64,000 nt of DNA from Dehalococcoidia bacterium (GCA_963667675.1 OY763929.1:622358-686357), one strand, 5' to 3'. Positions 4,575 to 15,958 are shown, numbered from the stretch's first letter. Numbers and translations are program-made. The notes: a model not told the origin generated them from the sequence alone.

Positions 4575-7082
4575 ATGCCAACCGGTAAAGACGGGGCCGC
4601 GACTGCGACTACTGTCATCGAGTTCATCAAGAAATGCGTCGACGCCCACGGCCCTCGCGATGCGCTGCTGTTCAAGCCGGGTTTCCGCTACCAGCGTTGG
4701 TCCTATGACCGCCTCTGGAAAGAATCGGGACAGGTGGCCTCCCTTCTCCAAAGCCGGGGATTGTCCAAGGGAGACCAAGCCGTCCTCTGGGGGCCCAATT
4801 CTCCCCAGTGGGTGCTCATCTTCTTGGGCTGCCTGCGGGCAGGCGTCATTGTTGTGCCGCTGGACCTACGCAGCGCGCCGGATTACGTCCAGCGGGTCGT
4901 CTCGCTGGTGTCGCCCAAGGTCGCCTTCACCTCGCGCTACACGCCCAAGGGAGACGTAACTCTTGACGCGCCGGAGATTACCTTCGAGGAACTGGAGGAC
5001 CGTATTCTGGGTCTTGGCGCCCCCGACCCCGTCGAAACGATCCCGGACGACCTGGTGGAGATCATGTTTACCTCGGGCACCACGGGCGACCCCAAGGGCG
5101 TGATGCTGACCCATCGCAACATCACCGCCAATATCGAAGGCATCTCCCAATACATCACCTGCCAGCCGTCCAGCAGGCTCCTCTCCATCCTGCCCCTCAG
5201 CCACATGTACGAGCAGACTGGCGGCCTGCTCACCGCGTTGCACTTCGGGGCCAGCGTCACCTATCCCACCAGCAGGCAGCCGACGGTCCTCGCCCGCACC
5301 ATGCGAGAACGCAAAGTCACCACCATGCTCCTTGTCCCCCAGGCGCTGGAACTGCTCATGAACGGCATCGAACGGGAGGTCAGGCGCCAGGGAAAAGAAG
5401 GGCTTTGGCTGAAACTGCTGAAGATAGCCGGTAAGACTCCCTTCCCATTGCGCCGGCGTCTCTTCGGCCGCGTACACCGGCAGTTTGGCGGAAAGCTCGA
5501 CTTCATCGTCTCCGGCGGCGCGGCCCTCGACCCGGAATTGGGCCGCAAGTGGGAGTTGCTCGGCGTCAAAATCGTACAAGGCTACGGGGCCACCGAGGCA
5601 TCCCCCGTCATTAGCAACCACACCCTGAGCGAGCGAAGGCACGACTCGGTGGGCCGTCCCCTGCCCAACGTCCAGGTCCAAATCACCGAGGAAGGCGAAA
5701 TCCTCGCCAGGGGAGAAAGCATATCGCCAGGCTACTGGAACGCCCCGGAGCAGACGGCTGCCGCCTTCAAAGAGGGCTGGTACTACACCGGCGATATTGG
5801 CTATTTCGACGAGGAGGGATTCCTCCACATCAAGGGCCGCGTCAAGGACATGATTGTCCTGTCCAGTGGGCAGAACGTGTACCCCGACGACATCCAGGCA
5901 GTGCTCAACCGGCACCCCAATGTCACCGACTCTGCGGTGGTGGGCCTGCCCAGGGGGAGCTCCATCGAGGTGCACGCCGCCCTGATTATCAACGATGATG
6001 CAGACCCCGGATCAATCATCTCGTGGGCCAACGAACAGCTGGCCGAGCATCAGATGGTGAGGGGCCACACCGTCTGGCCGGGCGAAGACTTCCCCCGCAC
6101 CCACACCATGAAGGTGAAGAAGCAACTGCTCATCGACGCGCTCCAGGGCAACGCCCCTCCTGTCCCCGCGGCCGGCGCCGGCCCGGCGGCGTCGGGCAGC
6201 CGTCCGGGAGACCGGGGCCTCGAGGACGTCATCGCCGAGGTCGCCAATGTTGACCCCTCTGAAATCACGCCGGGCATGACCTTGGGCGATGACCTCGGCC
6301 TGGACTCCCTTGGCCGGGTCGAGCTGCTGTCGGCCGTCGAGGCGGACCTTGGTACCTACTTGGACGAGAGCCAGGTCGGGCCAGAGACCACCGTCCGGGA
6401 GCTTGAGCAAGTATTGGAAGAGGGCGCCAACAACCCGCCGCTCACCCGGTTCCCTGACTGGGGCATGGACTGGTGGTGCCGTATGACCCGGGGCATGATT
6501 CAACGGTTGCTGGTGTTCCCCCTCCTCAAACTCCCCTACGGCTTGAAGGTCTCCGGACAGGAAAACCTCCGCGCCATCGACGGCCCGGTTCTGTTCGCCT
6601 CCAACCACAGCCTTGGCCTCGACAATCCCCTGATTATCAAGGCAGTCCCTCCGGCATGGCGTCGGCGGTTGGCCATCGCCGGGGCCGCCGCCTTGTGGAA
6701 AAATCCCGTGTTTTGGGTCATGAACCCCCTGTTGGGCAACGGGTTCCCCCTCGCTCATGAAGGCGCCGTCCGCCCCAGCTTGGAGAACATGGGCAAGATT
6801 CTCGACAGCGGCTGGTCCGTGCTGATTTACCCTGAGGGGGAGCTGACCGTCGGCGGACCCATCAAGCCGTTCATGAACGGTACCGGCCTGGTCGCCGTAG
6901 AAGGCCGTCTGCCCGTAGTCCCCGTCAAGCTGCACATCTACCGCCTCGGCGCGCCTGTGCGATTTCCCGTCCTCAAGCGGGGCCACGTTGAGGTCCGCTT
7001 CGGCGAGCCCTTGACGTTCTCTCCAAGCGCGTCCTACCAGGAAGCCACCCAGGCGATTGAACAGGCGGTACGGGTGTTGTGA
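4575..7082 (+). CDS. Fusion protein of acyl-AMP/CoA ligase, acyl-carrier (PP-binding) domain and PlsC-type acyltransferase
   Basis: AMP-binding motifs are present (MFTSGTTGDPKGV, GYGATE, YYTGDIGYFDEEGFLHIKGRVKD). A carrier-domain motif LGLDSLGRVEL follows, and then the acyltransferase NHSLGLD(H..D-like)/YPEGE motifs. AGGAG precedes the start at ATG 4575. The 4320 start in the track is an upstream extension. Confidence 0.85.
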   Translation: MPTGKDGAATATTVIEFIKKCVDAHGPRDALLFKPGFRYQRWSYDRLWKESGQVASLLQSRGLSKGDQAVLWGPNSPQWVLIFLGCLRAGVIVVPLDLRSAPDYVQRVVSLVSPKVAFTSRYTPKGDVTLDAPEITFEELEDRILGLGAPDPVETIPDDLVEIMFTSGTTGDPKGVMLTHRNITANIEGISQYITCQPSSRLLSILPLSHMYEQTGGLLTALHFGASVTYPTSRQPTVLARTMRERKVTTMLLVPQALELLMNGIEREVRRQGKEGLWLKLLKIAGKTPFPLRRRLFGRVHRQFGGKLDFIVSGGAALDPELGRKWELLGVKIVQGYGATEASPVISNHTLSERRHDSVGRPLPNVQVQITEEGEILARGESISPGYWNAPEQTAAAFKEGWYYTGDIGYFDEEGFLHIKGRVKDMIVLSSGQNVYPDDIQAVLNRHPNVTDSAVVGLPRGSSIEVHAALIINDDADPGSIISWANEQLAEHQMVRGHTVWPGEDFPRTHTMKVKKQLLIDALQGNAPPVPAAGAGPAASGSRPGDRGLEDVIAEVANVDPSEITPGMTLGDDLGLDSLGRVELLSAVEADLGTYLDESQVGPETTVRELEQVLEEGANNPPLTRFPDWGMDWWCRMTRGMIQRLLVFPLLKLPYGLKVSGQENLRAIDGPVLFASNHSLGLDNPLIIKAVPPAWRRRLAIAGAAALWKNPVFWVMNPLLGNGFPLAHEGAVRPSLENMGKILDSGWSVLIYPEGELTVGGPIKPFMNGTGLVAVEGRLPVVPVKLHIYRLGAPVRFPVLKRGHVEVRFGEPLTFSPSASYQEATQAIEQAVRVL

Positions 7083-7292
7083 CGCCTCCCGGTAACATTA
7101 GTTAGTTGCGAGGCAACGATACCCATTTCGGTAACATCTATTGTGAGTCAACTCGGTCGCTGGCAATCAGCCTCATTGGACCGGCTGACGAACATTCGAC
7201 AGGGGTAAATGGGTCGGGGTCCAAGGGGGCGTCAGAGATGCTGACTGTTGCCGAAAGAGATGGGTCATCCACCTGACTTGGAGGGACGCCGT

Positions 7293-7868
7293 ATGAGCAA
7301 ACAAGAGAGTGAGATTCAGCCCGCTGCGCCGGTCAGGCGTCGTCGCGTCCGTCATGGACTGGTCATCGTCAATACAGGCGAGGGCAAGGGCAAGACAACC
7401 GCGGCGCTGGGGGTTATTTTTCGGGCTTGGGGCCGGGACTTCCGCATACGCATGTTCCAGTTCATCAAGCACACGGGAGCTCGATTCGGAGAGCATCGGA
7501 CGGCCCAACGGCTGGAAATACCCATAGAGGCCCTGGGCGATGGCTTCACTTGGCTTTCCAAGGACATGGACAGGACCGCGGCCCTCGCCGTCGAACAGTG
7601 GGACCGCTGCAAAGAAGCCATCCTGAACGGAGACGAGGACATCATCATCCTCGATGAGTTCACCTACGCCATGCACTACGGCTGGGTCCCCGTTGCCGAC
7701 GTCGTTGACGCCCTGCAGCGGCGGAGAGACACCATGCACGTAATCATCACCGGCCGGTATGCCCCGCAAGAGCTTGTAGACTGCGCCGACCTGGTCACCG
7801 AAATGAAGATGATTAAGCATCCTTACCAGGAAAAGGGCATCAAGGCCCAACAGGGCATAGAGTTCTAG
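7293..7868 (+). CDS. cobO: Cob(I)yrinic acid a,c-diamide adenosyltransferase (CobO/BtuR type)
   Basis: The P-loop-like motif NTGEGKGKTTAALG and the length are typical of the CobA/CobO/BtuR family. ATG 7293 follows GGAGGGA. Confidence 0.85.
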   Translation: MSKQESEIQPAAPVRRRRVRHGLVIVNTGEGKGKTTAALGVIFRAWGRDFRIRMFQFIKHTGARFGEHRTAQRLEIPIEALGDGFTWLSKDMDRTAALAVEQWDRCKEAILNGDEDIIILDEFTYAMHYGWVPVADVVDALQRRRDTMHVIITGRYAPQELVDCADLVTEMKMIKHPYQEKGIKAQQGIEF

Positions 7869-7901: not shown

Positions 7902-8084
7902 ATGACAGCCAACAGAGTCAAGATCGTCGCCCAGGCCCTGTTGTTCGTGCTGGCGGTTGTTGTGTTCTACGTGGGTCTTGGCGTAGGACTGCAAATCAGC
8001 CCTACCCTCGGCTCCATCCTGTGGTTCGTCGCTGCGGCCATCGTGGCCTTGGACCTGATTTGGATTGCCCGGTCTCGTCGCTGA
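7902..8084 (+). CDS. Small two-TM membrane protein (hypothetical)
   Basis: The 60-aa ORF has two hydrophobic helices. No family was recognised. Confidence 0.4.
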   Translation: MTANRVKIVAQALLFVLAVVVFYVGLGVGLQISPTLGSILWFVAAAIVALDLIWIARSRR

Positions 8085-8272
8085 CGCAACTGCCCAAGAT
8101 ACCGTAGACCACAGGCCAACTATCTTGCAGGCTTACGTTGCGTTGACAAGAGCTACGGGCCAAGCCTACACTTCACCGGCTGTCTGCGCCTGCATTCGCC
8201 TCCGTTAGCCTTAGATGTCCCCAGTTGGAATGCAGGCAAACTCTAGCCCACCCTCGGTTTGGAGTCGGCATA

Positions 8273-8929
8273 ATGCAGAATGTAATCAGGTCCGGCGAAT
8301 TTGTGGTTCAGGCCAAGCCGTGGTCGGTGATAGGCCCGTTCAACAACTCCCTTATGGACTCCCTCTTCCCGTCCATCAATACCCTCCAGAGATTGGCCAT
8401 ATCGTTGCTGTTCGTGGGATTGCTGGTAGCCTTCGGGCGGGCGACGTTCTACCTGCCGGATAACCCCGTACCCATCACCTTTCAGACCACCGGCGTACTC
8501 CTCATTGGAGGAGTCTTGGGGCTGCGGTGGGGCCTCTTTGCCATCCTCGTCTACTACTTCCTGGGCATGGCCGGGGTTCCAGTATTCAAAGACGGCGGCA
8601 ATGGCTGGGACTACGTGACCGGCTCAGTCACTGGAGGTTATCTTATCGGGTTTGTCGCCGCCGCCGTGTTGGTGGGCTACCTGTCCCAGCGCGGTTGGAA
8701 TCGCGGCCGTTCCCTGTGGCCCATGCTCCTGGGAAGCCTCTTCATCTACGTCCCTGGTCTCCTGTGGCTGCACTATTTTGACTTCGGTTGGCCCGCCGAG
8801 GGAGAACTCTTCAGCGGCGGAATGTACCCGTTTATCCCCGGAGACCTGGTGAAGCTGATGATCGCGTCGCTGGTGGTAGGCTTCGGCTGGAAACTTGCAG
8901 ACCGGCGCCAGCAGTCCGACGGGCCCTAA
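8273..8929 (+). CDS. bioY: Biotin transporter BioY (ECF S-component)
   Basis: The polytopic membrane protein has the BioY-like segments GGYLIGF and PFIPGDLVK. The start is uncertain (ATG 8273, versus 8225 in the track). Confidence 0.8.
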   Translation: MQNVIRSGEFVVQAKPWSVIGPFNNSLMDSLFPSINTLQRLAISLLFVGLLVAFGRATFYLPDNPVPITFQTTGVLLIGGVLGLRWGLFAILVYYFLGMAGVPVFKDGGNGWDYVTGSVTGGYLIGFVAAAVLVGYLSQRGWNRGRSLWPMLLGSLFIYVPGLLWLHYFDFGWPAEGELFSGGMYPFIPGDLVKLMIASLVVGFGWKLADRRQQSDGP

Positions 8930-9089
8930 CCCGGAAATCATACTCCGTTGGACTTTCCTACGCCGTTGACCCCGGAAGTCCGCGTGAGACTCCCCGAATA
9001 CACTAGCGGATGAGCTAGGAGTCGATTTGGGCCGCCGCTGGGCATGCGCGGCCGATGGAGCTCTTTTATGGTTTATCGAGGGAAATGTT

Positions 9090-9175
9090 TGGTGCCGGGG
9101 GAGGGAATCGAACCCACACACCGGTCAAGGTAGCGGATTTTAAGTCCGCCGCGTCTACCGTTCCGCCACCCCGGC
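9090..9175 (-). tRNA. tRNA-Leu (anticodon UAA)
   Basis: The reverse complement folds as a cloverleaf. It has acceptor GCCGGGG/CCCCGGC, anticodon loop CUUAAAA, a long variable arm, T-loop GGTTCGATTCC, and an encoded CCA. Confidence 0.9.
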
Positions 9176-9311
9176 CACCTGGCCGCCTCCGTTGGCCGAC
9201 ACTGACATAGCGCCAGCTACGAAGGCATGTCTATTCTAGCATAAGGCCCCCTGTCACTCTGCCCTTGACACGCCCGAAACCCCATACCTAAACTGAGACC
9301 TACCGCCCCGC

Positions 9312-9411: not shown

Positions 9412-10842
9412 ATGGCCACAAAGACATATTCGGTCTCAGGAAAAGACGCATCCATCGACCTCATCCGCCACGCTGGAAGCCTGTCTTATGAAGAACTGCC
9501 CGACGAACTGGTGAATCTGACCAAGCAGTGCATCCTGGACACTTTGGGCGTCACCACCGGCGCCAGCGGCCTCGCCCCCGAGGGACGCATGGCCTTCGAG
9601 TACGTGCGGGACATGGGAGGCGCTCCCGAAAGCACCATCCTCGGCTTTGGCGGAAAGGCGCCGGCGCAGTGGGCGGCTTTCGTCAACGGTTCATTGGGCC
9701 ACATGCTGGACTACGACGACGTGGAGCCCGGCGGCGGACACCACAGCATCGCCACCGTTCCCGTGGCCTTTGCGGCAGCCGAGAAGGAGGGCGCAATCGG
9801 CGGACGGGAGATGATTGCAGTCGTGGCCGCCGGTCAGGACCTCATGGCGCGCATCGCCCTCTCCATAACCATTCCCGAGTGGACCATGAACGAGGGCTGG
9901 TTCCCCACCAATCTCCTGGGCTATCTCGGCGGCGCTGTCGTAGCCGGACGCCTCTACGGGCTGAACGAGGGACAGTTGGAAAACGCTCTGGGCATTGCCT
10001 TCAACCAGCTCAGCGGCAGCCGCCAAATGGCCGTGGCCGAAGCCACCCACATGCGCAGCATGCAGGCGGGATTCACCGGCCAGGGCGCCGTCATGGCGGC
10101 AGACTTGGCCCGCAGGGGAGTCACCGGCCCCAAACAAATCCTCGAAGGCCGGTACGGCTTCTACAAGACCTACGTCCGCTGCGAGCCCGACTGGGGCCAG
10201 CTCACCGGCGGCCTGGGCGACTATTTCCCATTGCTCCAGTGCCACGCCTTCAAGGTCTGGCCGGCCTGCGCCGCAACTAGACCTAGCAATGCCGCCATCC
10301 TCAACCTGCGGCGTGAACATGACCTGAACCCTGGCGACATCGACGAGGTAGTCGTCCTCGGCGGCAACATGCACACCGAGTTGCTGTCCGAGCCCATCGA
10401 ACTGAAGCGCCGGCCCGAGACCAGCATCGACGCCAAGTACAGCATTCCCTTCACATCCGCTGTCGCCATGGCCAAGGGCAACGTGACCCTGAGCGCCTAC
10501 ACCGACCAGGGACTGCACGACCCCGAGGTCCTGGCGATGGCCGATAGAGTCCGCTATCAGCCCTTGCCGCCTGAAGAGAACCACTTCGTGCCCGGCATCG
10601 AGATTCACACCCGCGACGGCCGGCGGCTGTTCCAGCGCGTTGAGGCCCTTCCTGGAGCGCCGGGCAATCCCGCCAGCCAGGACCTGCTGGAATCGAAATT
10701 CCGCGACTGCGTCTCCTTCTCCGCTTCTCCCGTCGCACCGGCCAACGCCGACCGCGTCATAGAAATGGTCAACAACCTGGAGACGGTGAGCGACGTGGGC
10801 GAGATCGTGCGCTTGCTTGCGCCGGCATACGGAACCCCATGA
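9412..10842 (+). CDS. MmgE/PrpD-family protein (2-methylcitrate dehydratase-like)
   Basis: The 476-aa ORF has family-typical length and layout, including an N-terminal ..CILDTLGV.. segment. Confidence 0.85.
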   Translation: MATKTYSVSGKDASIDLIRHAGSLSYEELPDELVNLTKQCILDTLGVTTGASGLAPEGRMAFEYVRDMGGAPESTILGFGGKAPAQWAAFVNGSLGHMLDYDDVEPGGGHHSIATVPVAFAAAEKEGAIGGREMIAVVAAGQDLMARIALSITIPEWTMNEGWFPTNLLGYLGGAVVAGRLYGLNEGQLENALGIAFNQLSGSRQMAVAEATHMRSMQAGFTGQGAVMAADLARRGVTGPKQILEGRYGFYKTYVRCEPDWGQLTGGLGDYFPLLQCHAFKVWPACAATRPSNAAILNLRREHDLNPGDIDEVVVLGGNMHTELLSEPIELKRRPETSIDAKYSIPFTSAVAMAKGNVTLSAYTDQGLHDPEVLAMADRVRYQPLPPEENHFVPGIEIHTRDGRRLFQRVEALPGAPGNPASQDLLESKFRDCVSFSASPVAPANADRVIEMVNNLETVSDVGEIVRLLAPAYGTP

Positions 10843-10920
10843 CAGAAGGGGCTTTATTGTCATAACCCTCGCTGGTATGGTAGTCGTGCTTGCAAAGATG
10901 GTTGAAAGGGGAGTGAAGCG

Positions 10921-11799
10921 ATGGTGGAAGTAGCGCCTCAGGCCAATTCGACGGGAACAGGCCGTAGAATTGCTGTTCACCGAAGGGGTGGTCGAGACCG
11001 AAAGATTGCCTTCGGGTGGTACGGGGGCAAATTCAGCCACCTTGATTTCATTCTACCCAACATCCCGTCGGACGGACGGCACTTTTGCGACGTCTTTGGC
11101 GGCTCCGCTGCGGTACTCATCAATCGCGAACCTGCCCCTGTTGAGACGTACAACGACATAGACTCGGAGCTCGTCAATTTCTTTGAAGTGCTTAGAGATG
11201 ATGGAGATGAACTTGTACGTGCAATCAGTCTGACTCCGTTTTCTAGGCAAGAACTTGCGCGAGCGTGTGTGTTTGAGACTGGACTGTCGAAACGGGAGCG
11301 AGCCAGGCGCTTCTTCGTGAGAGCGCGCCAGACTAGGACTGGACTAGCCCAACGGAGCAGCCAGGGCCGATGGGCGCACTGCGTTCTAACGTCACGCTCT
11401 GGCATGGCTGGTGCAGTGTCCCGCTGGCTCGGTTCGGTCGATGGACTTGCAGAGATTACACTTCGGCTGCAAAGGGTACAAATCGAGAATGCACCCGCTC
11501 TAGATGTCATAAGGCGCTATGACACCCCAGAAACGATTTTCTATCTGGACCCACCCTACGTTCACTCGTCTAGAGGCGATACCGCAGCGTACGAAAACGA
11601 AATGACTGACGATGAACACGCTGAACTGGCTGATGCGCTTTCGTTGATTCGTGGGCGCGCCGTTCTGTCTGGATATAGGACTCCCCTGTATGACCAGTTA
11701 TTCCGAGATTGGAGGCGGATAGACGCTCCCGTGCGAACTGCCAACTCCGTCCGTCAACCCCGTCAAGAGTCCCTCTGGCTCAATTTCGACCATGACTGA
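10921..11799 (+). CDS. D12-class (Dam-like) N6-adenine DNA methyltransferase
   Basis: It contains WYGGK, FCDVFGGSAAV (the FxGxG SAM motif), ETYNDID and the catalytic motif YLDPPY. Confidence 0.85.
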   Translation: MVEVAPQANSTGTGRRIAVHRRGGRDRKIAFGWYGGKFSHLDFILPNIPSDGRHFCDVFGGSAAVLINREPAPVETYNDIDSELVNFFEVLRDDGDELVRAISLTPFSRQELARACVFETGLSKRERARRFFVRARQTRTGLAQRSSQGRWAHCVLTSRSGMAGAVSRWLGSVDGLAEITLRLQRVQIENAPALDVIRRYDTPETIFYLDPPYVHSSRGDTAAYENEMTDDEHAELADALSLIRGRAVLSGYRTPLYDQLFRDWRRIDAPVRTANSVRQPRQESLWLNFDHD

Positions 11800-11959
11800 A
11801 GAAGAATTAACATCGATTACCTCCCTCGCCAGAAGTTCGTTTATGCTGCTCGGCGAAGAATGGCGAGTTGAGTTCCTCCAGGCGATTGGCGCCGAATTGG
11901 ATGCCCGTACTTCTCAACCCTCGGACCGCACTGCATTCGCCGCTTTGTTGACTGGATAG
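11792..11959 (+). CDS. Small acidic ORF (55 aa) inside the methyltransferase operon
   Basis: This ORF was found manually because it is below the track cutoff. Its ATG overlaps the stop of the upstream methyltransferase (ccATGActga). It translates to MTEEELTSITSLARSSFMLLGEEWRVEFLQAIGAELDARTSQPSDRTAFAALLTG. No family was recognised. Confidence 0.25.
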   Translation: MTEEELTSITSLARSSFMLLGEEWRVEFLQAIGAELDARTSQPSDRTAFAALLTG

Positions 11960-11967
11960 CCCTGGCC

Positions 11968-12852
11968 GTGAGTTATGCCCGTGGCAGCCAAGACATCCTC
12001 TGGGGTATGAATTTGCCTGAACCGGATTCTGTGATATTGGCCTGTGAAGACAACCTCGCCTTCATGGCAAGGATGCCCGACGAAACAATAAAGCTTATAG
12101 TCACGTCGCCACCCTACAACCTTGGTAAAGACTACGAGGCCAAGACTTCACTTGACGACTACCTCAAGGCCCAGAGGCGTGTAATCAGCGAATGCGTCCG
12201 GGTTCTCCATCCCCGGGGATCTATCTGCTGGCAGGTCGGGAACTACGTCAATAACGGAGAAATCGTTCCTTTGGACGCGGTGCTTTACCCGCTGTTCCGG
12301 GATCAGGGACTCAAGCTCCGCAACCGGATAGTCTGGCACTTCGGTCACGGCTTGCATTCGTCGAGGAGACTTTCCGGGCGGTACGAGACCATCAACTGGT
12401 GGACGAAGACCGACGACTACACCTGGAACCTGGACCCCATCAGGGTCCCGTCCAAGTATCCGGGCAAGCGCCACTTCAAGGGACCCAACATCGGCAAGTT
12501 GTCGGGTAATCCCAAGGGCAAGAACCCCAGCGACGTATGGGAATTCCCCAATGTCAAAAGCAACCACCCGGAGAAGACAATCCATCCTTGCCAATTTCCC
12601 GTTGAACTGGTGGAACGCCTAGTTCTCTCTATGACCAATGAAGGCGACGTGGTATTTGACCCCTATATGGGAGTTGGATCAGCCGTTGTCGCCGCTCTCA
12701 TGCACGACCGCGTCGCCTACGGGTGTGACATAGTGCAGGACTATGTGGATGTTGCCAGGGGGCGAGTGCACGGGTATTACGCCGGACAACTCCGTACACG
12801 CCCCATGGGAAAGCCCATATACGATCCGTCCAAGCCCAATGGAACCTCATGA
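11968..12852 (+). CDS. Beta-class DNA methyltransferase (N4-cytosine/N6-adenine; SPPY motif)
   Basis: Catalytic motif IV, TSPPYNLGKDY, is N-terminal. The SAM motif FDPYMGVGSAVVAA is C-terminal, which is the beta permutation. Confidence 0.85.
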   Translation: MSYARGSQDILWGMNLPEPDSVILACEDNLAFMARMPDETIKLIVTSPPYNLGKDYEAKTSLDDYLKAQRRVISECVRVLHPRGSICWQVGNYVNNGEIVPLDAVLYPLFRDQGLKLRNRIVWHFGHGLHSSRRLSGRYETINWWTKTDDYTWNLDPIRVPSKYPGKRHFKGPNIGKLSGNPKGKNPSDVWEFPNVKSNHPEKTIHPCQFPVELVERLVLSMTNEGDVVFDPYMGVGSAVVAALMHDRVAYGCDIVQDYVDVARGRVHGYYAGQLRTRPMGKPIYDPSKPNGTS

Positions 12853-14096
12853 TCGCTCCCAACTTCGCAGACAAGACTATCTGGACCGGCGACAACCTGG
12901 ATATCCTCCGGGGTATGAACTCGGAGTGCGTGGATCTGATTTATTTGGACCCGCCATTCAACTCCAACCGCGACTATGCTGCCCCGGTGGGCAGCAAGGC
13001 CGCCGGGGCAGCTTTCAAGGACACGTGGACTCTATCGGATCTGGACGTGGCTTGGATGGGGTTGATTGCCGACGAACAGCCAGGCGTCTATTCGGTGCTT
13101 CAAGCAGCTGGACGGACACATGGCAAGGGGATGCAGTCTTACCTCTGCATGATGGCGGTGAGGCTCATGGAGATGCGACGAGTGTTGAAAAACACTGGAA
13201 GCATCTACCTCCACTGCGACCCGACGGCCGGCCATTACCTGAAGCTGCTGATGGACGCTATCTTCGGAGACCAGAATTTTTGCAACGAGATAATTTGGCA
13301 TTACCGAAAATGGCCAACTGGTAAATTCACGTTTCAAAGGAATCATGACATCATCCTGTTCTATTCCCGCTCGCAAACGCGGGATAGAGTGTTCAACCAA
13401 CTTTATATGGACCGGGCCCCATCCACCATTAAGAGATTCGGCATGGCCCAAATTGTCTCTGGACACGATGAATCTGGACAACGGATCCCCTCACAAGTTG
13501 AATCCAATGAATCTAGAGGGGTCCGGCAAGATGATGTTTGGGAAATCGGCAGGGTTGCTCCCATCAAGCAACTGTTCCCCACTCAAAAACCCTTAGCCCT
13601 TGTAGAGCGCATCATCAAGGCCAGCAGCAACCCTAGAGATGTAGTTTTGGACCCGTTCTGCGGTTGTGCCACAGCGTGTGTGGCTGCGGAAGTTCTGGGC
13701 AGGCAGTGGGTAGGGATAGACCTTTCTCCAATGGCCTATACGTTGGTTAGGCAAAGACTATTCAAAGAGGTCGCAGTAGGGGCGGAAGAACAAGTTCACT
13801 TCATGGGGCGGCAGGTAACCCATCGTACCGACATACCTAAGCGGACGGATATTGAGGCCCCCATCCCTTATCGACAGAACAAGCACATCCTCTTTGGTCA
13901 ACAAGAAGGCCTGTGCAACGGCTGCAAGGGGGACTTTCCGTTCAAGTTATTTGAAGTTGATCACATTGTCCCACAGAAGCGGGGCGGCACCGACCACCTT
14001 GAGAACTTGCAGTTGCTTTGCACCAACTGCAACCGCGTTAAGGGCGACCGTCCCCAAGAGTACCTCATGGCCCGTTTGAAAGAGATGGAGGGATAA
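12849..14096 (+). CDS. Beta-class DNA methyltransferase (DPPF motif) fused to a C-terminal HNH nuclease domain
   Basis: It contains LDPPFNSNRDY and later LDPFCGCATACVAA. The C-terminus is CNGC…VDHIVPQKRGGTDHLENLQLLCTNCNRVKGD, which is an HNH domain with two CxxC pairs. The start overlaps the upstream stop (ATGA). Confidence 0.85.
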   Translation: MIAPNFADKTIWTGDNLDILRGMNSECVDLIYLDPPFNSNRDYAAPVGSKAAGAAFKDTWTLSDLDVAWMGLIADEQPGVYSVLQAAGRTHGKGMQSYLCMMAVRLMEMRRVLKNTGSIYLHCDPTAGHYLKLLMDAIFGDQNFCNEIIWHYRKWPTGKFTFQRNHDIILFYSRSQTRDRVFNQLYMDRAPSTIKRFGMAQIVSGHDESGQRIPSQVESNESRGVRQDDVWEIGRVAPIKQLFPTQKPLALVERIIKASSNPRDVVLDPFCGCATACVAAEVLGRQWVGIDLSPMAYTLVRQRLFKEVAVGAEEQVHFMGRQVTHRTDIPKRTDIEAPIPYRQNKHILFGQQEGLCNGCKGDFPFKLFEVDHIVPQKRGGTDHLENLQLLCTNCNRVKGDRPQEYLMARLKEMEG

Positions 14097-14108
14097 AGGA
14101 GTCTTGGT

Positions 14109-14411
14109 ATGCTGATGGACGATGCCACTTTGGGCAGAAAGATGAGGTCCCGAAGTGAAACTGCTAAGCAGATTGAAGCCTTGGAGAGCCGCATTAAGAC
14201 CAAAGTGGCCTCCTTCTTCAACCTAATTACGGGTCTGCAAAAAGATCCTGCCTCGATTCATATCTTGGAAGACGGAGGACTGATTGCTGAGCGGGGTAAA
14301 CCAGTCTCTCCAGATACTATACGAGCACTGGCTAGTGAATTATCGGAACTCAAAAAGCTACGTACTAAACTTGATTCGTTGACTCAACAATTGGCCCATG
14401 AGGGTTTCTAA
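14109..14411 (+). CDS. Hypothetical coiled-coil protein (100 aa)
   Basis: AAGGAG lies 7 nt upstream of the ATG. The ORF is tightly packed in the operon and looks helical/coiled-coil. No family was recognised. Confidence 0.5.
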   Translation: MLMDDATLGRKMRSRSETAKQIEALESRIKTKVASFFNLITGLQKDPASIHILEDGGLIAERGKPVSPDTIRALASELSELKKLRTKLDSLTQQLAHEGF

Positions 14412-15492
14412 CCCTATGGCTGCTTATTCCGTTTCCGAGTACAACAGAAGAATCCATGAATTACTAAACCTCGCCAGAAAAGGAGAACACCGCAATTGCC
14501 TATTTACCAATCAATGCACCGAGAAAGTGATTGATGCTCACTCAGTTCCGCGAGCGGTCCTTCGTACGATTCAAGACGACGGACACGTCATACAACCAGA
14601 GGTGAAAGACGATAAGGATGCGGAAGGGCGCTCTCGACCGGCTATTACGTTCAACTTGGAGGGGATAGGGGTAGCCTCAACAGGCACCTTCGCTTGCCAG
14701 AGACATGACAACGTCTTTAAGGAGATAGACACCGTTTTCATGGATCTGGAGGACCCAAATATTCGCAACCTGCTCCTATATCGAGCAGTCATACGGGAGA
14801 TATGGCGGTTGTTCGCACTACGGCCTAGCACGAAATCTACAGACCAAGCATTACCAAGTTTACACCGCTCATCTATACATCCAGAAACTCGACTAAAGAC
14901 TTTATTTTATCTGCGAGACGCTGTGATGCGTTCATTGGCTAATCGGGGTTGCACCGAGGATATGCCCCGAGTGGTGCACATGGTCCGACGAGTGAGAAGC
15001 CCTTATCCAATACTTGCGGCGTCCTGTGCATCAGGCGGCTCAATGCTACTTCAGGATGCCCAGACTGGGGAATTGCTCCCTGATAGCTATGCACGCTCAC
15101 ACCTGAGTATGGAGCCATACACATGCTGGGGACTAACAATAATTCCTCAGGAGGATGCACACATGGCTTTGTTCTCTTGGCTAGAAGGAAGCGCCGCCGA
15201 GACGTATTTTACGCATGTCAACGAGGTGCAAGGCTCGGAGTTGGAAGCTGCTATATCAGCAGAGCTAATTCTATTCTGCGAGAATTGGTTCCTGAGGCCC
15301 AAGGTTTGGGAGGGTTATGGCGCAACAAAGCGGGACGCTATTTGGGAAGCTTACAACAACGTAAATGAAATGCTGTCAGGTCAGTATATGCGGTGGGATA
15401 GAAACCCGAAGAAACCGTGGTACGAATATCTGAAGCTCGGTAATAGACACCAAATAAACTTATTTCGTTACGATCAGTCCGTCCTTGGATAG
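14398..15492 (+). CDS. Uncharacterised Cys/His-motif protein (364 aa)
   Basis: This is the last ORF of the methyltransferase operon and overlaps the previous ORF. Its motifs CLFTNQCTEKVIDAHSVPRAVL and FACQRHDNVF suggest a metal-binding or nuclease-like core, but I cannot name a family. An alternative start is ATG 14416. Confidence 0.6.
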   Translation: MRVSNPMAAYSVSEYNRRIHELLNLARKGEHRNCLFTNQCTEKVIDAHSVPRAVLRTIQDDGHVIQPEVKDDKDAEGRSRPAITFNLEGIGVASTGTFACQRHDNVFKEIDTVFMDLEDPNIRNLLLYRAVIREIWRLFALRPSTKSTDQALPSLHRSSIHPETRLKTLFYLRDAVMRSLANRGCTEDMPRVVHMVRRVRSPYPILAASCASGGSMLLQDAQTGELLPDSYARSHLSMEPYTCWGLTIIPQEDAHMALFSWLEGSAAETYFTHVNEVQGSELEAAISAELILFCENWFLRPKVWEGYGATKRDAIWEAYNNVNEMLSGQYMRWDRNPKKPWYEYLKLGNRHQINLFRYDQSVLG

Positions 15493-15623
15493 CAGCGCAC
15501 TAAACGACAGCGCGAATCTGAGGCGGCACGGTGACTGCCATACTCCCTAGTCTGGCAATCCTGGCGCACTGGGCGAAGCTTTGAGGGACTCGTGGAAGTT
15601 GTACAGCAAGTGCGGGCAGGTAA

Positions 15624-15700
15624 TGGAGGCGACGGGCGGATTCGAACCGCCGAATAGAGGTTTTGCAGACCTCCGCCTTAGTCCACTTGGCTACGTCGCC
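15624..15700 (-). tRNA. tRNA-Cys (anticodon GCA)
   Basis: The reverse complement reads GGCGACG…CUGCAAA anticodon loop…GGTTCGAATCC…CGTCGCC-U-CCA and folds as a 77-nt cloverleaf. Confidence 0.9.
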
Positions 15701-15712
15701 CCTGGTTAGGCC

Positions 15713-15799
15713 TGGTGCCGAGGGCGGGATTTGAACCCACACAGGCGCACGCCCACGGCCCCCTCAAGACCGCGTGTCTACCAATTCCACCACCTCGGC
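15713..15799 (-). tRNA. tRNA-Leu (anticodon GAG)
   Basis: The reverse complement reads GCCGAGG…anticodon stem CGGTC/GGCCG with loop UUGAGGG…long variable arm…GGTTCAAATCC…CCTCGGC-A-CCA. Confidence 0.9.
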
Positions 15800-15958
15800 C
15801 CGCCGAAGAGGCGCCTATTATATCACGTACCCCGCCCGGAAACAGCCGCGATCCAGCCTCCACGCGCCCCCACGGCGTTGTAGTTATGGCGTAGAATAAC
15901 GGTTGTAAATTCTTAGCCAATAGGCCCTGACTTAAGGAAGCGCCCGCGCAGTCATCTG

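Follow-up and report, generated by a model that had tools for sequence, protein, structure and literature searches.

Does a tight cluster of three DNA methyltransferase (MTase) genes of different classes, one of them fused to an HNH nuclease domain, together with genes for two unrecognized proteins, represent a single and perhaps new defence system, or is it an assemblage of unrelated genes that came to share a chromosomal site? This question is raised by positions 10921-15492 of a 64,000-nucleotide (nt) stretch of DNA from a Dehalococcoidia bacterium (GCA_963667675.1 OY763929.1:622358-686357), hereafter the window. The six open reading frames (ORFs) of this block, ORF1 to ORF6, all on the + strand, were recovered with the same boundaries as in the first-pass annotation, which was made from the sequence alone; ORF calls, Pfam searches and GC content bear out its description of co-directional genes of lower GC with three MTase classes and an HNH fusion, as well as its remark that the layout is not that of a textbook restriction-modification (R-M) system. 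Comparison with sibling genomes leads us to conclude that the locus is probably an anchored R-M hotspot of small size. Separate units would have been stacked in it and both conventional endonucleases lost, so that two orphan MTases remain along with an MTase-HNH gene that stands alone and an accessory gene pair unrelated to the rest.

The PrpD-tRNA-Cys interval in sibling genomes

The closest relatives of ORF3 (P0315 and P0316) are encoded on megabase-scale contigs of related Dehalococcoidia metagenome-assembled genomes (MAGs), in the same neighbourhood as in the window, namely, a MmgE/PrpD gene, a variable site, the tRNA-Cys/tRNA-Leu pair, a DUF2007-like gene, sucD, sucC and a Band_7 gene. 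All sequences compared here are metagenome assemblies, and the site is sampled in a handful of MAGs. The tRNA pair, which the first-pass annotation had placed at 15624-15799 and which is confirmed by ARAGORN and Rfam, is also found in L014 and L016.

In allele A of the variable site (L014-L017), only two genes are present between PrpD and tRNA-Cys, a methylase (M) gene orthologous to ORF3 and, directly after it, a gene for an endonuclease (R) of the BglII family, which in a direct scan scores 116.3 bits against PF09195 (Endonuc-BglII) with the entire profile covered. In allele B (L019, L020), PrpD is followed by an M gene orthologous to ORF1, a gene for a SacI-family endonuclease (PF09566, RE_SacI, 73.9 bits) that overlaps the M stop codon by 8 nt, and an ORF of 165 amino acids (aa), after which synteny returns at the position of tRNA-Cys. 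Both flanks of L019 and L014 are 97-98% identical and the cassettes between them are wholly different, which identifies the PrpD-tRNA-Cys interval as a replacement hotspot for R-M cassettes. With the window included, three different contents are found between PrpD and tRNA-Cys, the combination of constant boundary genes and varying defence cargo that characterizes an anchored hotspot. The accessory nature of the block, which had been proposed at first pass, is thus supported by the other gene content that close relatives carry at the same site.

The flanks of the block align to the relatives at 83-86% identity up to the PrpD stop codon (10826-10843) and again from 15622, with synteny to all relatives resuming at 15622-15623, two bases from the 3' end of tRNA-Cys; for MmgE/PrpD itself, the ratio of nonsynonymous to synonymous substitution rates (dN/dS) is 0.108, with dS of 0.60. 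Between these breakpoints, the alignable parts of the window are ORF3 (to allele A) or ORF1 and the tail of ORF2 (to allele B), and the stretch 12843-15621, which encompasses ORF4-ORF6, has no counterpart in any of the sibling-genome alleles. In agreement with the first-pass annotation, no integrase, transposase or phage structural gene was identified within the block, and no direct repeat of the tRNA 3' end that could mark an att site was found around it. In the absence of an integrase, the R-M cassettes would reach the site through recombination. The coordinates of all features are given in Table 1.

Table 1. Features of the variable site and its boundaries, in window coordinates
Feature	Position	Strand	Evidence or remark
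MmgE/PrpD gene	9412..10842	+	left anchor of variable site; 85-86% nt identity to L014-L020 as far as the stop codon
12-nt repeat GGAACCyCATGA, copy 1	10831..10842	+	PrpD 3' end and stop
Cassette B remnant (ORF1 and ORF2)	10838..11979	+	alignment to L019; no counterpart in L014-L017
ORF1, D12-class Dam-like (DPPY) N6-adenine MTase, 292 aa	10921-11799	+	PF02086, 74.6 bits; PADLOC MTase_II PDLC03244, 175 bits
ORF2, in-frame deletion stump of SacI-family endonuclease, 55 aa	11792-11959	+	tblastn against L019 R
ORF3, beta-class SPPY MTase, 294 aa	11968-12852	+	PF01555, 179.9 bits; SPPY and FxGxG-type motifs
12-nt repeat GGAACCyCATGA, copy 2	12841..12852	+	ORF3 stop / ORF4 start; copies PrpD 3' end
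ORF4 5' leader (M..PNFADKTIWTGDN..IL.GMN)	12849..12922	+	relic directly after PrpD in relatives
ORF4, beta-class DPPF MTase with C-terminal HNH, 415 aa	12849-14096	+	PF01555, 139.2 bits; PF01844, 50.9 bits
ORF5, predicted helical protein, 100 aa	14109-14411	+	good AGGAG ribosome-binding site; third-position GC (GC3) 0.47
ORF6, Cys/His protein, 364 aa	14398-15492	+	member of a large unnamed superfamily
tRNA-Cys(GCA)	15624-15700	-	ARAGORN and Rfam; its 3' end bounds the variable site on the right
tRNA-Leu(GAG)	15713-15799	-	ARAGORN and Rfam

Two orphan methyltransferases

ORF1 and ORF2 correspond to the two ends of cassette B. Window positions 10838-11811 are 89.7% identical to L019 9918-10891 and positions 11810-11979 are 81% identical to L019 11787-11956; the ~895 bp of L019 that belong to the endonuclease gene (10892-11786) are missing between the two aligned parts. 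The first-pass annotation took ORF2 for an independent small acidic gene. Its first seven residues, MTEEELT, match the N-terminus of R, MTEDELT, those from 7 to 55 share 88% identity with positions 306-354 of R (tblastn E 1e-21), and its 8-nt overlap with the M stop codon equals that of the intact R gene in L019. This ORF is not among the called genes in the protein collection and has no match in Pfam, PADLOC, NCBIfam or PHROGs. As judged from these alignments, ORF2 is instead a relic of a SacI-family endonuclease (R residues 1-7 plus 306-354), that is, an in-frame deletion pseudogene stump which, devoid of residues 8-305, cannot function. The full pair of an M gene next to a PF09566 endonuclease is present in L019 and L020 and absent from the window, and ORF1 is accordingly the M gene of a SacI-family Type II pair that has lost its endonuclease. 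The ORF1 protein is 97.3% identical to the L019 M (dN/dS 0.032, dS 0.38), and because this dS is below that of the flanking genes (0.57-0.63, with dN/dS 0.07-0.11), cassette B was exchanged after the species split and is the younger one. The L019 copy of cassette B has, at its left end (9900-9935), ~19 nt (GTATGCGATAGGGCATGAC) that resemble the PrpD 3' end of the window (GCATACGGAACCCCATGAC, 10815-10850), which hints that the cassette moved between lineages carrying a piece of its former flank.

ORF3 is the counterpart of the cassette A methylase: positions 11983-12842 align to the M gene of L014-L017 at 84-85% nt identity, the same as the flanks, and the proteins are 87-88% identical by direct alignment (the homolog listing gives 91% for P0315 and 89% for P0316). 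Its dS of 0.82-0.89 (dN/dS 0.085-0.093) is above that of the flanking genes, indicating that ORF3 has been at this locus for at least as long as the species have been separated. The protein has the beta-class MTase motifs of a BglII-family system, and no adjacent PF09195 endonuclease, either as a gene or as a remnant, was detected in the window by tblastn, its partner having been deleted completely, which makes ORF3 an orphan MTase. The SPPY motif is consistent with N4-cytosine methylation, as carried out by M.BglII, and ORF3 is probably an N4-cytosine enzyme of the BglII-system type.

R-M systems are expected to decay by losing the endonuclease and keeping the methylase: loss of R is tolerated, whereas loss of M first would be lethal, and decay therefore leaves intact orphan methylases. 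The low dN/dS (0.03-0.09) indicates that ORF1 and ORF3 are intact and under purifying selection, and both orphans, the N6-adenine enzyme ORF1 and ORF3, would keep methylating their sites.

Two further observations concern the ORF3 family. In L021 (10876-11487), a BglII-family R gene with an in-frame stop (46- and 155-aa fragments) lies beside an intact ORF3-type M gene, which is either an independent example of R decay or a sequencing error. Across the family (P0314-P0433), the 10-45 residues preceding LACEDNL are hypervariable in proteins that are otherwise 76-94% identical, a pattern that could reflect either over-extended gene calls or a cassette repeatedly landing in frame behind foreign 5' ends.

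Compositional strata within the block

A profile of GC content and codon usage, proposed as a check at first pass, reveals both a dip in GC and a division of the block into strata. The GC content of the block is 0.48-0.56, compared to ~0.60-0.65 in the flanks, and GC3 is 0.54 in ORF1 and ORF2, 0.68 in ORF3, 0.63 in ORF4 and 0.47-0.50 in ORF5 and ORF6, against 0.78-0.81 in core genes (PrpD, sucCD). With at least three compositional strata, the block is not one acquired unit. The genes are co-directional and tightly spaced (overlaps of 8 nt between ORF1 and ORF2, 4 nt between ORF3 and ORF4, and 14 nt between ORF5 and ORF6). They do not form a conserved operon, and the term operon, which the first-pass annotation applied to the block, is unproven: no sigma-70-like promoter or + strand terminator was found in 10700-15800, with scans that are uninformative for this phylum.

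Junction sequences and the order of events

In L014, L016 and L019, PrpD is directly followed by 58-75 nt from the start of an ORF4-type gene, ~82% identical to the 5' end of ORF4 (window 12834-12922 against L014 9987-10074, 82%; window 12834-12904 against L019 9839-9908, 82%). This leader is present in 106 of the 120 ORF4-family members and in just four of the 120 ORF3-family members, namely the three closest relatives, P0314-P0316, and P0339 (P0315 and P0316 were tagged by a regular expression, P0314 and P0339 by eye from their N-termini). The chimeric-looking start of the relatives' M, with its ORF4-type leader, may in part be a gene-calling artefact, the true start perhaps being internal.

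A second mark is found at the boundaries of ORF1-ORF3, where two copies of a 12-nt direct repeat, GGAACCyCATGA, bracket these genes. The 12-nt sequence ahead of the ORF4 start, GGAACCTCATGA, is a copy of that at the 3' end of PrpD, GGAACCCCATGA. There are two occurrences in 64 kb against 0.02 expected, for a pattern that was derived from the data post hoc, and the repeat looks like a duplicated junction from the time when ORF4 abutted PrpD. At the C-termini, ORF3 of the window ends in PNGTS and the relatives' M in PNGGH, and PrpD ends in GTP in the window and in ATS in L016. The 5' end of ORF3 is clipped by cassette B, with the leader tail ILWGMN.PEPDS kept.

These junctions can be accommodated in a scheme in which an ORF4-type gene probably abutted PrpD in the ancestral state. 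In the lineage of the window, cassettes B and A would then have been inserted between PrpD and ORF4, and in the relatives, the cassettes would have overwritten the body of ORF4, leaving its 5' leader as a relic.

The solitary MTase-HNH fusion

The HNH domain of ORF4 spans residues 356-401 (~13914-14051), scores well above the Pfam cut-off of 21.4 bits, and retains the zinc-binding and catalytic motif CxxC...[D/E]H...N...CxxC[N/H] intact. Among the 120 best-scoring clusters of homologs, taken from at least 8,000 candidates, all have the PF01555 plus HNH architecture (56-75% identity); the full motif, CxxC...[D/E]H...N...CxxC[N/H]..K, is present in 119 of these 120 and DPPF in 117, indicating that both halves of the protein are maintained by selection. 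The HNH domain most likely works as a nuclease or nickase together with the methylase of its own chain, which would make ORF4 either a single-chain R-M-like unit or a mobility function. The literature searched, broader queries included, yielded no published description of a C-terminal HNH on a beta-class MTase.

Relatives of ORF4 are solitary in all six other contexts examined (L007-L010, L024). For example, the gene is joined end-to-end with an integrase gene in L007 and sits among housekeeping genes in L008. Homology among these units extends from ATG to stop codon and ceases at the gene ends, with no conserved DNA ends in the form of inverted repeats or att sites. In the unrelated contigs L009 (6712-9236) and L024 (4821-7227), the latter a viral contig with tape-measure genes, a transposase of the insertion sequence (IS) family IS1595 is encoded directly upstream of the MTase-HNH gene and in the same direction; with this neighbour present in two of the six contexts, the fusion may travel as an IS1595 passenger. 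In L010, the whole MTase-HNH gene is tandemly duplicated (6561-7775 and 8001-9215), with ~60 nt of identical flank on each side, beside an IS3-family transposase, which suggests recent local amplification.

The accessory pair ORF5 and ORF6

ORF5 and ORF6 are a separate low-GC pair. The ORF5 protein has no match in Pfam, PADLOC, NCBIfam or PHROGs and none on plasmids, and forms a singleton cluster. Two metagenome matches to ORF5 were rejected as spurious coiled-coil similarity inside an apparent phage scaffold protein, so labelled from its position in a portal-scaffold-capsid-like ORF run.

ORF6, by contrast with this singleton, has 45 close clusters, the four of which that were located in a scan of GTDB genomes all come from Dehalococcoidia MAGs, and a profile search at E<=1e-3 retrieves 2,226 representative clusters, of which 470 reach E<=1e-10 and most are 310-400 aa long. 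A paralog with ~50% identity, P0023, is encoded on the same 2.6-Mb genome contig outside the window. Invariant residues of the superfamily are C34, H48, C100, H103 and F107, position 40 is mostly Cys or His and position 104 Asp or Glu, which suggests a four-ligand zinc site and a separate essential histidine. The sole named feature among the members is an occasional N-terminal SEC-C zinc motif. Superfamily members show weak PADLOC matches to E2/PDC-S12-type models only, which we attribute to SEC-C because in a Lactococcus member these matches overlap the N-terminal SEC-C motif.

The ORF6 protein has no match in Pfam, PADLOC, NCBIfam, PHROGs or, with either the single sequence or the profile, PDB sequences. 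Its AlphaFold2 model is confident (mean predicted local distance difference test score, pLDDT, 83.7; predicted template modelling score, pTM, 0.84), as is that of the isolated Cys/His domain (pLDDT 85.7), and Foldseek gives no significant match for the full model in PDB and BFVD or for the isolated domain in PDB. The pattern C34-x5-C/H40...H48...C100-x2-H103-[D/E] resembles a His-Me finger, and no HNH or His-Me finger structure is among the Foldseek hits listed; given the lack of a significant match, the nuclease idea is unsupported beyond the motif pattern. With family, profile and fold searches all empty, identification of ORF6 as a known nuclease or defence protein was rejected.

Relatives of ORF6 are solitary in seven of seven distinct other contexts (L001-L006, which represent four distinct loci, and L011-L013), and no methylase related to ORF1-ORF4 is encoded among their neighbours. 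In L001, the gene adjoins TIR and transposase genes, in L002 DUF499 and DUF1156 genes, and in L005 and L006 DDE_3 transposases; further relatives are found in plasmid accessory regions of Aminobacter, Priestia and Lactococcus, and none in IMG/VR or JGI metagenomes. Members of the superfamily thus occur on plasmids, next to IS elements or in regions that resemble defence islands. The ORF6 protein is most likely a zinc-binding protein that acts alone in a plasmid, IS or defence-island role. The small genes downstream of the ORF6 homologs in L001 (11094-11405) and L002 (10973-11329) share 55% identity with each other and encode a C-terminal DGDGDG-type motif. They are unrelated to ORF5 and have no counterpart in the window, and L005 and L006 differ again, so the idea of a conserved small partner of ORF6 was rejected.

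Alternative explanations

The first-pass annotation raised the possibility that the six genes constitute a single R-M or modification-dependent defence system, either atypical or new, with a Type IIS-like, MboII-type pair of N4-cytosine (m4C) and N6-adenine (m6A) MTases. In such a reading, the HNH domain and/or ORF6 would be the restriction component. Such a system would agree with the co-directional, tight or overlapping genes, the SPPY and DPPY methylase pair and the presence of a conserved HNH nuclease along with an unassigned 364-aa Cys/His protein. Nevertheless, ORF1 and ORF3 belong to separate alleles in the siblings, each with its own Type IIP-family endonuclease at the same site, ORF2 is the stump of one of these, and Pfam, PADLOC and NCBIfam reveal no Type IIS endonuclease family among the window ORFs. 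No two of the modules ORF1-ORF2, ORF3, ORF4 and ORF6 co-occur at any other locus examined, the block has the strata described above and genes of different ages, and the matches to the defence-system collection of PADLOC (PADLOC-DB v2) are methylases only, with the non-methylases ORF2, ORF5 and ORF6 matching 0 families. A single system is thus highly improbable, and the claim of a novel gene set fails for ORF1-ORF3, since these match R-M types that are already described and whose restriction subunit is assigned. The other origin considered at first pass, a phage or prophage anti-restriction methylation cassette left at a tRNA integration site, would account for the position of the block directly at the tRNA 3' end and for its low GC; the methylases also score well against phrog_56 and phrog_67, and viral contigs and Streptomyces phages often carry ORF4 relatives that consist of the MTase alone. 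Given, however, that no integrase, att repeat or phage gene is present in or beside the block, that the site is syntenic and chromosomal in the relatives, where ORF1 and ORF3 have their sources in complete R-M pairs, and that the HNH fusion is found in just 2 of the 73 viral relatives of the ORF4 methylase part, a phage origin is extremely unlikely; ORF6, with no relative in IMG/VR and no matching fold in BFVD, a library of viral structures, does not point to viruses either.

On a smaller scale, ORF4, ORF5 and ORF6 could work together as a unit and have taken the place of the BglII-like endonuclease all at once, with ORF4, for example, as the methylase-nuclease and ORF5/ORF6 as a partner effector or regulator. 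These genes fill exactly the 12843-15621 stretch that lacks a counterpart in the relatives, the start of ORF6 lies within ORF5, which has a good ribosome-binding site, and ORF5 and ORF6 are alike in composition. This unit is nonetheless unlikely, considering that the relatives of both ORF4 and ORF6 are solitary, that GC3 of ORF4 (0.63) differs from that of ORF5 and ORF6 (0.47-0.50), that the leader relic in the relatives suggests an older residence of ORF4 at the site, and that no ORF5 homolog was found in the databases searched. We also consider it rather unlikely that the MTase-HNH family is a single-chain R-M-like or self-mobilizing selfish gene that inserts as a bare ORF and that the ORF6 superfamily has a new single-gene function in defence or plasmid competition.

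Several points weigh against the anchored hotspot with stacked and decayed R-M units, which we prefer. Intact motifs and dN/dS are the basis on which the three MTases are taken to be active. A chimera of co-existing alleles is formally conceivable in a metagenome assembly; against it speak a deletion that is in frame, junctions that are clipped and the fact that the other alleles are 84-90%, and not ~100%, identical. The tight spacing and overlaps allow co-transcription, and some functional interplay between the genes is conceivable. The proposed order of events draws on few genomes and short junction sequences, and other orders are possible. Finally, the hexamer palindromes AGATCT (4 against 9.9 +/- 3.2 expected) and GAGCTC (9 against 21.9 +/- 4.4) are both rarer across the window than in dinucleotide shuffles. 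As an indication of AGATCT-like and GAGCTC-like specificities, this depletion is weak evidence: it is compatible with past restriction pressure but not specific, in a 64-kb window too small to decide.

Relation to known systems

Anchored defence hotspots with cassette replacement have been described, with or without an integrase (the immigration control region, ICR, of E. coli has none) and also at a tRNA gene (leuX hotspot 37) (PMC12707154). The Dehalococcoidia site shares with these the fixed boundary genes and the replacement of whole R-M units between near-identical genomes, along with the tRNA anchor and, as in the ICR, the absence of an integrase; it differs in being far smaller (0.6-4.8 kb) and in that its cassettes have piled up and decayed instead of replacing one another cleanly.

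The individual modules also have known counterparts. The likeness to BglII-type Type IIP R-M systems consists in the orthology of ORF3 to an M gene located directly upstream of a PF09195 endonuclease at the same chromosomal site, the difference being that the window has no endonuclease gene or remnant. In the case of SacI-family Type II systems, ORF1 is 97% identical to an M that is paired with PF09566 and has the same 8-nt M/R overlap, but the endonuclease of the window is cut to 55 codons, and the partner M is of the D12 m6A class. As in other orphan MTases that result from R-M degradation, M is intact and selected and the cognate R is deleted or truncated; here, in contrast, two orphans of different systems adjoin, and a third methylase is present as well. 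With Type IIC/IIG enzymes and HNH-type restriction or homing enzymes, ORF4 has in common the combination of methylase and nuclease in one chain and a solitary, mobile-looking gene. The characterized Type IIC/IIG enzymes known to us combine PD-(D/E)XK nuclease domains with gamma-class methylases, whereas ORF4 pairs a beta-class MTase with a C-terminal HNH.

The locus can be regarded as a well-resolved case of a known process, turnover of R-M systems at an anchored hotspot with production of orphan methylases, in an uncultured Dehalococcoidia lineage. It also calls for caution in the annotation of similar regions, since tightly packed co-directional genes that resemble a defence system can be stacked unrelated remnants, and a small acidic ORF of no known family can be the stump of a restriction enzyme. 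Wider leads are provided by the very large conserved MTase-HNH family and by the large unnamed ORF6 superfamily, with its confident predicted fold that has no structural relative.

A possible second variable site

The region upstream of another tRNA gene, tRNA-Leu(TAA) (9090-9175; window 9079-9295), differs among the relatives and may be a second variable tRNA site. A fragment of an HTH_Tnp_1 transposase and different genes are found there in L014 and L019 (6400-8400), and cobalamin-salvage genes along with BioY are present in the window and in L015-L017 (L016 6200-8400).

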